DNA of 64,000 bases from Eledone cirrhosa (lineage: Eukaryota): positions 28,582,001 through 28,646,000 of the forward strand of contig OZ024747.1 in assembly GCA_964016885.1 (NCBI GenBank), given 5' to 3'. The notes under the pieces are model-generated. The model saw only the letters and a list, made by a program, of their open reading frames with translations. It was not told the origin of the DNA and searched no databases. A program made the position numbers and the translations under genes. How positions within the stretch are numbered: the stretch's first letter is position 1; every line of letters starts with the position of its first letter. Shown here one piece after another: positions 266 through 12,138 of this stretch.

Positions 266-681
266 ATGTAGGAGGTGAGTTTTATTGTAGTACAATAAAG
301 CAATGCAGATATCGGATAAGAAGCACTCTACAGTTTGTAGGACTGGAGTATACATAATATATAAGATCAAAAGATGGTTAAAGGAGTTCCATGTATTTTA
401 TTATGCGCATTTCAAAAACAAACATCATCATGCAATAATATTTGTGTTTTCATCAGATAAAACAGGAGAACATGATATGAAGGCTAAAAAACACTTGTGG
501 ATAGTGCAGTTATGTTGATTTAAAACTGCACTATCCACAAGTGTTTTTTAGCCTTCATATCATGTTCTCCTGTTTTATCTGATGAAAACACAAATATTAT
601 TGCATGATGATGTTTGTTTTTGAAATGCGCATAATAAAATACATGGAACTCCTTTAACCATCTTTTGATCTTATATATTAT
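266..681. mobile_element. Penelope-like terminal (pLTR) remnant forming a perfect palindrome plus an unpaired tail
   Basis: Arms 354-511 and 524-681 (158 bp) are reverse complements around a 12-nt loop, and each arm contains an HHR. About 85 nt of unpaired tail lies at 266-353. The element is flanked by (TA)n. Confidence 0.75.
572..640 (+). ncRNA. Type I hammerhead ribozyme (mirror copy on minus strand at 395-463)
   Basis: gttttat-CTGATGA(579-585)-long stem II-GAAA(622-625)-tgcgca-TA^ataaaat. Stem I is ttttat/ataaaa and stem III is the palindrome ATGCGCAT. Confidence 0.85.
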
Positions 682-741
682 AGATATATATATACACATA
701 TATATATATATATATATATATATTATATATATATATATACT

Positions 742-825
742 TGTCAGAAGTGGGATTCAAACCCACGCCGGAAAGACCCGACTGCGACCTCAACGCAGCG
801 CCTTAGACCGCTCGGCCATCCTGAC
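742..825 (-). tRNA. tRNA-Leu gene or pseudogene with a CAG-type body and a GAG anticodon
   Basis: Reverse complement reads GTCAGGATGGCCGAGCGGTCTAAGGCGCTGCGTT-GAG-GTCGCAGTCGGGTCTTTCCGGCGTGGGTTTGAATCCCACTTCTGACA. It folds into a cloverleaf with a long variable arm. The T-loop is TTTGAAT instead of TTCGAAT. Confidence 0.9.
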
Positions 826-1339
826 TAGATACACTACCGTATATTTTGGTAGATTTATCTACATATATATATAGATATATATATATAGAAAGGATAAAAG
901 GACGATTTATTATTCCTTCATTGCATTTATTGATAGGTGATGCGCGTTTCGCCACTGATCAGCTCAAGGTTCGATCTATATATATATATATATATATACA
1001 TATATACACATATATATATATACATGTATATATATATATATATATACACATATATACACATATATACACATATATATATATATATATATATACATATATA
1101 CACATATATATATATATACACATATATATATACACATATATATATATATATATATACACATATATATATACACATATATATATATATATACACATATATA
1201 TATACACATATATATATATATATACATATACATATATACACACATATATATATATATACATATATACACATATATATATATATACATATATACATACACA
1301 TATATATATATACACATATATATATATACACATATATAT

Positions 1340-1681
1340 GGAGGCACATGGCTTAGTGGCTAGAGCATTGGCCTTGCAATCGAAAGGTTGTGAGTTCAAT
1401 TCTCAGACCAGGTGATGTGTTGTTTCCTTGAGCAAGACACTTTATTTCACATTGCTCCAGTTTACTCAGCTGTAGAAATGAGATGATAGGGACTGGGGTC
1501 CCTATCATTCCACTGCAAAGTGGTCGTGGAGGTGCCACGGCAAAAAAGCACCCAGCACTCACTGTAAATGAGGTTGGCGTTAGGAAGGGCATCCAGCTGT
1601 AGAAATCAAGCCAGAATCAGTTCCCGTCCCACCCTTGCAAGCAGGGAAAAGCAGACATAAAATGATGATGATGATGATGAT
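1340..1681 (+). mobile_element. tRNA-derived SINE with an RTE-LINE-derived 3' tail and (TGA)n end
   Basis: Has an A-box-like TGGCTTAGTGG and a B-box-like GAGTTCAATTC. The last ~55 nt match the RTE 3' end at 25399-25461. A near-identical inverted copy lies at 31301-31643. Confidence 0.85.
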
Positions 1682-1918
1682 ATATACACATATATATATA
1701 TATATTGAGTACTTTGGTGCGTTATGGTCCACCTGGTTCCTTACCACATTTCCTTCGTTATACATATATACATATATATATACACATATATATATATACA
1801 CATATATATATACACATATATATATATACACATATATATATACACACATATATATATACACACATATATATATATATATATATATATATATATACACATA
1901 TATATATATATATATATA

Positions 1919-8417: not shown

Positions 8418-8503
8418 ATACACATATATATATATATACACATATATATATATACACACATATATATATATATATATATATATATACAGATATATATATA
8501 TAT

Positions 8504-10798
8504 ATATTATAATGAAATGACAGGAGGCTGGATTTGTGTAAATCCTTGAAAGGTTTAAATGTAATAATGAACAGCGGCATGGGACTGAATATATCTAACC
8601 ACCATTCGGACTGTGGCTACTCGGTGTTTTTCGCCTACCGCCAACCTGGCCCATGGCTACTTCCCTCTCAGAATATTCGGACCTCGACGAAACTCTACGG
8701 ATTATACCATAACATGTATTGTACTGCACTGTATCAACTGAATTCGCTACCCTATACTTCTGGGCATGTATAACTCCCACTGAATTCCCAGACTCGAACA
8801 CACACTGACTCCATTTCCACATCTATATGCATTATCTGACTGTAACTTGAACTATATTGTATTTCTCCTGTGTCTTGAACTATCCATTTACCCGACTCTT
8901 GTTTGTTTATTTATATCTTTATATATTTATTTGCTGTATTAATGCTTTTCCACATATTCTACCTCTATACATCCATGTACTTTTTACTTCCCTTATTCGG
9001 ACTTTTACTCGCGTGTACCCTTAGCACACGACACTGGAATGTCTCCCCCTGGGAACATTAATACTGCAACCTGAACTATATTGTACTTCTACTATGTCTT
9101 GTTTTCTCCATCTTACTCCAACACCACTCTTGTTGGTTTATTTACATATTTATATTTATATATTGATATATTTATATATTTATACCTTTGCTTTATCAAT
9201 GTGCTCTTCCACGTATTCCTCTTCTATGTATCCATGTATTTCTACTCCTCCTATTGGGACTTTTGCTCACTTGTCCCCATTAGCACACGACACTAGAATG
9301 TCTCCCCCTGAGAACAAAAATAAATATTACCCGACTATATCCCGTACTCTACATCCCACTAGGGTAAATTATAGATCTACATAATACAATTAACGTCTCT
9401 TCAAAAAAGACTCTCTTTAATTAAACCCCGCAACCCAAAACCTTATATAAGTTTTTTTTAAATGTTTGATTTTCAATTTTCTGTTTGTTCAATTCTCAAT
9501 CCTCTTACTCTTTAATTTTATAATGTTATTCTGAATTCCTTCAACTTCATCCTATAAATTTAAACAATATTTTAGAGTTCCAACTTTCTGTCGGACTGTT
9601 GGGTGGGTTTTAATGGCGGCGCACCCTGAGGCAAGGGCCTACCTTGAGTGCTTGGAAAAATAAATTTCCCCTTCTTTCGGTAAATGAAAATACTCGGAGT
9701 GGCTTAATTCGTCCTGGAGCGCGGCCGGTTTTTAACCGCCACATAGTACCTTTAAATTACAGACCAAATCAGAAATATTAGATATATCAACCTTAAAATG
9801 TTAAACTGTTTAACTTTAAATTTTCTAATTTCTTTGATATTAATTATTAATTTTTAACTTCATCCTATAAGTCTAAACAAAAACGTAACGTTTCAATCTT
9901 CTGCTCACACATTATAACACACTGACCCCCACTATATTCACCTCTGCTAAGATACGGGTCCCTGTGAAAATTTTCTCGCGCCACTCCTGGCCTGACTGTA
10001 GTCTGACATTAATATCGACCTTTCTTCCTCTTTCTTTCTATCTTCCTTCTTGTAGCCATCAACCCTTACTCTTCTACTTCTTCCTTTTCTTCCTTCTCTT
10101 CTCCCCTCTTTCTGTCTTCCTCCCGCAGACTTATCTTCCTTCTCCCTCTTTGTTCGCCCATATCTGACCGGTAGTAGTTGTTTAGATACGGGTCCCGTAG
10201 AATAAAAAAATTTCTTCGCGACAACCCTGGCCTGACTGTAATACCGTCCTTTCCTCCTCTTTCTTTCTGTCTTTCTTCTTATAGCTGACATTAACCCTGG
10301 CTTCTCCTCTTCTTCCTTCCCCCTTCTTCTCTCTCCTTCCTTTCTTTCTTTCTTTTGTCTTGTAACTTATGTTCCCATCCCTTTCTGTTTTCCTTTATCT
10401 GACCGGTAGTAGCACACTGTGAGCCTTAGCCACGTCACTCGAGGGCGACCGGCTAAGATAGAGGGTGCAAGATAGCGGTCGCCCTCGGGTCCTCGATTTT
10501 TAGCCCCATGGATTTTATCTATTACATTCACGTATTATATTTTAAATACCTGATGATATCACCGGATTCACACGAAACCCGGTCATTGAAATGATCATAG
10601 TATAATAAACCTTTCAAGGATTTACACAAATCCAGCCTCCTATCATTTCATTATAATATTTAACTCCGTAATAGCACCACCAACTACAAAAACAAAGACG
10701 GTTGAACTGCTTTACGTTGAGTACTCTCTATATTATTACATTACGATTGACCATACGGAATAGACCAGCTCTATACAGTGGTGAACCACAAACCTGAA
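8504..10798 (+). mobile_element. 5'-truncated PLE 3' region (~2.3 kb) with an inverted pLTR piece, internal duplications and an HHR
   Basis: 8504-8557 is the reverse complement of 10606-10659. Diverged direct repeats lie at ~8845-9055/9065-9315 and ~9948-10175/10183-10412. There is a GC hairpin at ~10440-10488 and an HHR at 10546-10603. Confidence 0.75.
10546..10603 (+). ncRNA. Type I hammerhead ribozyme
   Basis: atac-CTGATGA-tatcaccgg...ccggtcatt-GAAA-tgatca-TA^gtat. Stem III is the palindrome ATGATCAT. Confidence 0.85.
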
Positions 10799-10842
10799 TA
10801 TATATATATATATATACACACATATATATATATATATATATA

Positions 10843-11485
10843 TTGGCTTTGATAGATCCATCCACTGAGCTGTTCCACCACCATGTCTGACTGACTGGTA
10901 CTCTACTCCAGCCATCCTCTACATCAAAGGTATCTAGCTCATCACTTCTCTCATCAAATGCATCCTGCAGGGCCTTTCTAAACCTATATTTAATTGAGAG
11001 GTGCCTCCATCTCCATATTTTCCTGCATGTGTTGTTCTCTCTCATGTCTATTTTGATGTCACTAATAACTAACTTGTGCTGGGCAGTGCATTCCTCCCCA
11101 GGGAAAGGCTTAGTATTTATTACAGACCTTTTGTCTTGTTGTCAAACAGATGAATAGTCAATTTGGCTTTTGTGTTCACCTGATTGATATGAGATTAGGT
11201 GGCTGGTTGGTTTCCTGAAATATGTGTTGCAAATGGTTAGTTCATTTGTGTCATAAAATTTCCAGGAGTCTCAATCCCTCTTCATTTCTTGAGCCATAAC
11301 CATAATCACCATGAACTCCACTGAATCCATACTGGTACTGCCCCACATGCTCATTGAAGTTGCCTATCAGGATGATGAGGTCACCTTTATCAGTACCTGA
11401 AATCATCTGTAAAAGTTCTTCATAAAACCTGTCTTTTTGTTCTTTACTCGGTGCTACCTGTGGAACATAGGAAATGTAATTCATA
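10843..11485 (-). mobile_element. Degenerate RTE-clade LINE fragment (AP-endonuclease region)
   Basis: ORF pieces YVPQV...KDRFYEELL...GNFNEHVG...RNEEGLRLLE and TWWWNSSVD resemble the element at 25399-28320. Confidence 0.85.
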
Positions 11486-11514
11486 TATATATATATATAT
11501 ATATAAATATATAG

Positions 11515-12138
11515 TAATAATAATAAATGTCAAGACTAAAATTCAAAGAGGGCTGAATAAGGATAAATATATATCAAATATATAAGAACCCTAGAGCAAA
11601 TATTTATTAAAATAACAAATTAAAGTTTAAGCAAAGAATCGCTGCTTTCACCCTTAACGGGATCTTCTGAAACTAAAAAAAAATCAATTTGTGAACGCAG
11701 AAGTAAATATTTCAAAAAACGTTGCAACCGAAGGAAAACAGGAAGACGATACTTTGGTTCGTGAAGACGTTCCCTGGCAATGAACAGTAAAAAGCAAAGA
11801 AAATAGGTTGTAATGTGGAGCGATGAGAACAATTACGTGCAAAGTCAAAACCACGTTTATGGTATAAATGGAGTCATTAGACTAATGTTCTATTTAGGAA
11901 ACCGAATGATTCTCGGCTTCAGAGTTAAGAATAATTGTTTCTACTTTTTCCATTCGTTGCCAGGGAACGTCTTCACAAACCAAAGTATCGTCTTCCTGTT
12001 TTCCTTCGGTTGCAACGTTTTTCGAAATATTTACTTCTGCGTTCACAGATTGATTTTTTTTTTAGTTTCAGAAGATCCCGTTAAGGGTGATAGCAGCGAT
12101 TCTTTGCTTAAACTTTAATCTGTTATTTTAATAAATAT
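11515..12138 (-). mobile_element. PLE pLTR with an inverted copy; variant HHR at 11624-11674 (minus)
   Basis: Arms ~11600-11784 and ~11953-12138 show a few mismatches. Minus strand reads agttt-CAGAAGA-tccc gttaa gggt-GAAA-gcag cgattct ttgc-TT^aaact. The plus-arm copy has GATA in place of GAAA. Confidence 0.7.

Follow-up and report, generated by a model that had tools for sequence, protein, structure and literature searches.

Hydra-clade Penelope-like elements (PLEs) share a C-terminal GIY-YIG domain, a DKT motif, a CxCx5C linker and CxxC and CxH motifs, together with a 3' hammerhead ribozyme (HHR), often with U10.1-U11.1 and U17, insertion into (TA)n and an inverted, 5'-truncated arm (PMC8557442). 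Hydra-1_Obim of Octopus bimaculoides combines a preference for (TA)n with an HHR (PMC8557442); HHR-bearing Hydra elements that target (TA)n are therefore already published, Octopus included. In Anolis Poseidon (PMC11167929) and Adineta Penelope (PMC3846280), which insert into ATT or AT-rich targets, two 3' end positions define a tail, the inverted pseudo-long terminal repeats carry the tail on one copy, and the HHR is not required in vitro. The PLE protein cuts and extends both DNA strands from two internal start sites, and HHR mutants have no effect (PMC11167929). A tail on one arm has been described qualitatively (PMC3846280, PMC8557442). Non-LTR retrozymes, finally, are dispersed, self-pairing, non-coding tandem units of about 150-450 bp with a GC content below 45%, each with a single type I HHR whose stem III is short and palindromic (PMC7229834; bioRxiv 10.64898/2026.07.22.740005). 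The window analyzed here, 64,000 nucleotides (nt) of the 3.0-Gb assembly of Eledone cirrhosa (OZ024747.1:28,582,001-28,646,000), contains at least seven repeat families, most with an HHR motif near the 3' end, that sit end-on in TA repeats. An octopod host would also fit the SINE and RTE repeat types and the Argonauta homologue of one ORF. The cluster is real and represents a dense example of a genome-wide habit that is known in kind. Because the headline claim has been published in kind, the locus itself is ordinary. Literature searches outside subscription papers found no survey of cephalopod HHRs, and the word 'ribozyme' is absent from PMC13282606.

A strict scan for type I HHRs revealed 12 cores in the first 12,200 nt of the window, compared with a mean of 0.005 and a maximum of 1 in 200 local dinucleotide shuffles of this part. 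Under relaxed settings, the 64-kb window yielded 15 HHRs, namely those at 456(-), 579(+), 2166(-), 28571(-), 3384(-), 3544(+) and 10550(+) and eight copies in a tandem array. Canonical type I cores (CUGANGA, GAAA, UH and three stems) occur in five families, designated c1, c2, c3, c5 and the array, all present within the first 10.6 kb. The motifs that the earlier note had listed at 572-640, 2128-2170, 3538-3588, 10546-10603 and 28533-28575 and in the array fold as canonical type I HHRs, whereas the one at 11624-11674 (family c6) has an altered core, and the one at 48481-48516 fails in stem I and has no other copies among the loci searched. A random sample of 100 blocks of 10 kb (1 Mb; loci L171-L270), drawn from 17 large contigs, contained 85 canonical HHRs, 14 of which belong to one array, versus 0, 0, 0, 0 and 1 in five shuffles. 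Extrapolation gives about 250,000 HHR motifs per genome (95% bootstrap interval 171,000-366,000), or approximately one per 12 kb, which exceeds the 120,000 retrozymes reported for axolotl (PMC7229834). In the random sample, the first pair of stem II was most often U-U (19/61 HHRs), the commonest predicted cleavage site was UA (46/61), and other single core changes were mostly sporadic.

Each element of the window except the motif at 48481 belongs to a dispersed family. Genome-wide, we counted 6,002 exact 31-mer matches for c1, and 19,765, 568 and 7,528 exact matches for the motif of c6, that of the family to which the half HHR belongs (chalf) and the array HHR, respectively. Families c2, c3 and c5 were represented by ~40 scored copies each, mostly with 97-99% identity. 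A further, very abundant family (c0; 41 BLAST matches in the random megabase, inverted pairs included) retains an intact second HHR half, the first box having apparently decayed in the longer copies. All eight families show 5' truncation, an inverted arm and an optional 3' tail. The view that the HHRs share only their core is wrong for 2128-2170 and 28533-28575, because both represent one family (c2), with 93% identity over 276 nt. The other element ends have no common sequence save a 21-nt AT-rich match between the ends at 572 and 11624 (E 0.008).

The 3' ends of the eight families were then scored for (TA)4+ within 15 nt of the mapped end. In random DNA, TA adjoined 59 of 69 mapped ends, and over all loci examined it adjoined 366 of 433, against a background of 7.9%; at these loci, (TA)n was found at 47/53 ends of c1 and 68/74 ends of c6. 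The short-end pattern of c5 matched nothing, and those of c3 and chalf admitted tailed copies, which lowered those fractions. For 60 independent HHRs of the random sample with room to measure, (TA)6+ lay within 300 nt downstream in 52 cases, versus a background of 22%, or 31% inside the same blocks. Short interspersed nuclear elements (SINEs), used as a control, had TA within 50 nt in 0 of 42 cases. In the random sample, an end of another PLE family was found across the same tract (within 400 nt) for 10 of 72 ends, versus 1.4% expected if ends were uniform, which bears out the earlier proposal of repeated insertion into the same tracts. Complex flanks of TA tracts in the random blocks fell into 44 recurrent families in 327 of 1,111 cases, compared with 48 in a random-position control, and these families include RTE tails, SINEs and PLE ends. 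Within the window, TA borders every element in 266-12138, as had been claimed; the tract at 28533 is just ~(TA)4, and the nearest long tract to 48481-48516 is ~520 nt away. Together with the coding evidence for three of the families, these counts support the claim that several PLE families have their 3' ends in (TA)n genome-wide, and the enrichment that the earlier note had anticipated was present in random DNA.

Open reading frames (ORFs) with reverse transcriptase (RT) and GIY-YIG domains upstream of the HHR were tied to c1, c2 and c6. A full c1 copy at locus L361 encodes 821 amino acids (aa) (L361:1229-3691) with RWT, DKT and YRDD motifs, the CxCx5C linker, CxxC and CxH. The c6 ORF is 35% identical to it over 561 aligned columns; it has the CxCx5C linker, CxxC and CxH, with DKT and RWR in L367:683-1300, and 23-26% of the members of its Atlas neighbours contain GIY-YIG. 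Judged by these motifs, c1 and c6 appear to match the Hydra-clade definition of PMC8557442, and they share the 3' HHR, the (TA)n insertion and the inverted 5'-truncated arm. They depart from the published elements in several respects. The RWK motif is replaced by RWT in c1 and RWR in c6, the HHR listed for Hydra-1_Obim differs from those of c1 and c6, and the Hydra cores in File S2 of PMC8557442 are all canonical, whereas that of c6 carries U4A. Tails measure 56-134 nt here as opposed to 30-40 nt in Hydra-clade PLEs, and copy numbers reach the thousands to tens of thousands. The Hydra clade is also marked by the absence of CCHH, and by eye no cysteine pair lies within the GIY-YIG core of c1. 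In c2, a GIY-YIG C-terminus lies ~195 nt upstream of the HHR at 28571, and longer copies add RT and then a CX4CxxC linker ahead of GIY-YIG, which falls within the CX2-5CxxC form of the Neptune linker. This order, the 3' HHR and a microsatellite bias are shared with Neptune-clade PLEs; c2 would accordingly be Neptune-like by its linker motif, which alone does not fix the clade because Nematis and Naiad endonucleases share such a linker.

In every family, the 3' end falls at one of two positions, tailed or tailless, which lie 56-134 nt apart and are joined to TA. One tailed and one tailless end were combined in 80 of 85 head-to-head pairs of seven families (15/16 in c0) and in 8 of 9 pairs of c2. 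Overall, 88 of 94 inverted insertions, retrozyme included, follow this one-tail rule, for which independent choice of the ends gives at most half, and all four fold-backs of the window obey it. The rule is near-strict here, unlike in the descriptions of Poseidon and Adineta Penelope, and the target is (TA)n rather than ATT or AT-rich DNA.

The tandem array at 4826..8420 (+) consists of 8.5 non-coding units of 422 bp with an HHR in all eight full units, spaced every 422 bp from 5217. It starts at the predicted cleavage site and ends in (TA)n at unit position 219, the tailless end. The unit is strongly self-pairing (z -7.4), and the array shares with non-LTR retrozymes the traits named above, from dispersal to the single type I HHR per unit. 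On its sequence, it ranks as a non-LTR retrozyme. Arrays found at 20 other loci match the 422-bp unit and end in TA at unit position 219 or 275, and all 11 complete inverted arrays have one end of each kind (by eye; one end reads 215). In the cited passages of the retrozyme papers, these marks of PLE insertion (head-to-head arms, one tail, TA target) do not occur. That the retrozyme obeys the one-tail rule is evidence, at the level of sequence, for insertion of retrozymes by PLE proteins, and the data favour arrays that were inserted as multimers by such proteins, with a circle as the probable source. The 5' junctions of retrozymes were not enriched at the cleavage site (1/30, the one being that of this window).

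Two families carry fixed changes in the ribozyme core. The c6 motif reads CAGAAGA instead of CUGANGA (U4A) in 100 of 100 among the matches listed of its 19,765, and in 47 of 51 copies examined. In chalf, the first box is CCGTCGA (U4C/A6U) in 96 of 100 among the matches listed of 568, whereas relatives at L226 and L172 have a canonical or near-canonical box in the same place. The half HHR noted earlier at ~925-975 belongs to this family; its second half is present, the copy is 5'-truncated, and the family core is altered. A third family with a U4C core is represented by four copies in random DNA (L187, L209, L247 and L261), ~207 nt from TA. Lunse and coworkers reportedly described PLE hammerhead variants in 2017, which may cover changes at U4. 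Single mutants in the CUGA turn have low activity (PMC9901934), and a U4C viroid variant showed reduced but sufficient activity (PMC3088659). For these reasons, the altered-core families probably multiplied although their ribozymes were weak or dead, which agrees with the insertion independent of the HHR in PMC11167929. Two of the motifs in the earlier note may not cleave, because their families have altered cores.

We consider it highly probable that multicopy elements entered the region in separate insertions, one stacked upon another, and that (TA)n is nicked by PLE GIY-YIG/RT proteins, so that TA persists for the next family. Each insertion would retain TA on both sides and so provide a further target. 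The protein would cut both strands and prime reverse transcription from both nicks; use of the two internal start sites on the RNA would be coupled, and the resulting pair of 5'-truncated cDNAs would join head to head. Non-coding families, that is, the 422-bp unit and probably c3, c5 and chalf, would depend on the same machinery, and insertion probably does not require HHR cleavage. A more tentative proposal, which we put at somewhat below an even chance, treats the genome as a natural experiment on the purpose of PLE ribozymes. As a Hydra-type family reached about 20,000 copies with a U4A core and two other families fixed U4C, cleavage would be dispensable or attenuated in autonomous elements, the retrozyme would have retained an intact core for making circles, and a PLE dimer would insert both. 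Such a dimer would prime once per RNA start site, one on each DNA strand, and retrozyme circles would be copied into head-to-head multimers in one step.

Several observations weigh against the reading of the region as a stack of insertions made by PLE proteins. TA also occurs within 300 nt upstream of 31 of 61 HHRs and within 300 nt of 19 of 42 SINEs, and RTE tails lie near TA in 38 of 72 cases at 300 nt and in 10 of 72 at 50 nt. The TA association is therefore partly regional, because SINEs, RTE tails and the upstream sides of HHRs also lie near TA. The Pfam RVT_1 model did not match the c1 or c6 ORF, and its match to c2 was below the cut-off. No PLE ORF was found for the array or for c3, c5, chalf and c0, the search for the latter four covering 1.5-kb flanks and one longer chalf locus. 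PLE proteins are thus only the presumed mobilizers of these five, and c3, c5, chalf and c0 may be non-autonomous or have a long 3' untranslated region. Six of the 94 pairs break the one-tail rule. In vitro, start sites were alike between the strands, so the coupling is not predicted by PMC11167929.

Other explanations were weighed against the same data. A chance origin of the HHR motifs in AT-rich DNA might be read from the Rfam scan, in which the hammerhead family was absent among 150 of 201 matches listed, and from minimum-energy folds that sometimes lack the three-way junction. It has, however, almost no probability given the excess over shuffled sequence in both the window and the random megabase, the fixed position of the HHR between the ORF stop and the 3' end of the element, and the U-U first pair and U17, which are the same as in published Hydra HHRs; it is refuted for all motifs except 48481. 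A further possibility is that the locus is not simply the extreme of ordinary TA targeting but a special hotspot, or a ribozyme island kept by selection. It has five canonical types in 10.6 kb, compared with a mean of 0.62 per 10 kb (Poisson p ~0.0006) and with ~1.5 types predicted from its TA content. In the 8 kb upstream of the window (L369), four more HHR-like motifs, which belong to two other families, lie among many TA tracts, so the dense region spans ~15 kb or more. The window was, however, picked for its density, and several copies in the cluster are truncated or core-altered. Among the random blocks, 56 had no HHR type, 30 had one, 12 had two, one had three and one had five, a distribution that is not significantly overdispersed (p=0.087). 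The locus ranks near the top 1%, and one of 100 random blocks equals it. With about one HHR per 12 kb genome-wide, the 'ribozyme islands' of the earlier note were overstated, and we regard a special hotspot as improbable.

Expansion of the tracts was also suggested in that note, as a possibility. Elements might create or lengthen TA tracts, either because a telomerase-related RT adds TA without a template or through long target duplications, so that the islands would grow by feedback. In keeping with this, at least 8 nt of TA flank each side of 52 of 65 inverted insertions, the number of HHR types in a 10-kb block rises with TA content (Spearman rho 0.52), and at locus L035 the same CA/CT/TA mosaic flanks a retrozyme array on both sides, possibly as a long target duplication. 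On the other hand, tracts with and without a recurrent repeat flank have equal median lengths (37 versus 37 nt, p=0.31), informative duplications are found in 7 of 65 cases versus 5.5 ± 2.3 in shuffled pairings, and some copies (L064, L290) end without TA. The length and duplication tests have little power, since splitting and length bias counteract one another; expansion found no support in them and appears unlikely. Slightly less likely still is growth of the 422-bp array in place from a single unit by unequal crossover, as in the satellite model of bioRxiv 10.64898/2026.07.22.740005. Array lengths do differ widely between loci, and older, diverged arrays exist (L237). Yet at the 20 other loci multimers often occupy both arms of a head-to-head insertion and end in TA at 219 or 275. 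Moreover, none of the variants listed for 136 units recurs in a second unit, a test of low power because the loci were chosen for 100% identity.

The stack of insertions can be followed along the window. A 3' remnant of c0, a TA-bordering family, lies at 142..202 (+) and contains the second HHR half (GAAA, stem III and GUC) and a tailless end. The Hydra-type c1 fold-back at 266..681 has (TA)n on both sides; its left arm (-) carries a ~83-nt tail and the HHR at 456-402, and its right arm (+) is tailless with the HHR at 579-633. A 5'-truncated chalf remnant with the second HHR half only follows at 888..976 (-), and a c0 tail remnant at 1705..1758 (+) sits between TA tracts. The Neptune-like c2 3' end at 1915..2246 (-) has its HHR core at 2166 and a tailed end in (TA)n. 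At 2990..3310 lies a fold-back relative of the 422-bp unit, older, diverged and without a retained HHR; this terminus and those at 142-202 and 1705-1758 had been missed by the earlier note. In the c3 fold-back at 3324..3670, which contains HHRs at 3384(-) and 3544(+), the left arm is tailless, the right arm has a ~66-nt tail, and an ORF was not found. Downstream of the array, the c5 element at 8501..10798 (+) comprises a short, tailless inverted arm (8501-8557), a 2-kb body, the HHR from 10550 and a ~134-nt tail ending in (TA)n. The sole ORF of more than 130 aa in its body had no Pfam match. The Hydra-type c6 fold-back at 11514..12138 holds the variant U4A HHR at ~11669(-), its left arm having a ~86-nt tail and its right arm being tailless; a variant match printed at 52331 is the reverse-strand coordinate of 11669 and no new copy. 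A longer c2 copy at 28320..29194 (-) has its GIY-YIG C-terminus at 29194-28766, the HHR at 28571 and a tail that abuts a short (TA)4. The HHR-like boxes at 48481..48516 (-) have a broken stem I and are at best a decayed copy. BLAST over all loci examined returned only the motif itself, and the sequence search for relatives picked up nothing but another repeat, at 48300-48398, so that no family was found.

Further features were observed in the window. At 742-860, a complete tRNA-Leu gene (anticodon GAG, minus strand) is fused to a dispersed repeat, of which the 33-nt end that borders TA is present, and TA lies on either side. Here a tRNA retrocopy may have been captured as one arm of a PLE-type insertion; a second copy of the tRNA-Leu part was not found among the loci examined. 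ORFs of a long interspersed nuclear element (LINE)-type RT followed by a PHD finger lie at 25623-28091, 29510-30764 and 44400-45365, and one of them adjoins the c2 GIY-YIG remnant. The ORF at 52038-52532 (+) matches Rpp20/Alba, a subunit of RNase P/MRP, and is probably a host gene. Rfam matches to miRNAs in the window are artefacts of fold-backs and TA repeats.

To the published picture, this analysis adds the families, their scale, counts for the tail rule and core variants that have become fixed, among them that of c6, which spread with a predicted crippled ribozyme (19,765 exact motif copies). Models of PLE integration are constrained by the near-strict one-tail rule, which, because it includes the retrozyme, also ties retrozyme integration to Penelope-like enzymes. 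With matched families whose cores are canonical, U4A or U4C/A6U, and with the nearly intact young ORF at L361, the need of PLEs for their ribozyme becomes testable.

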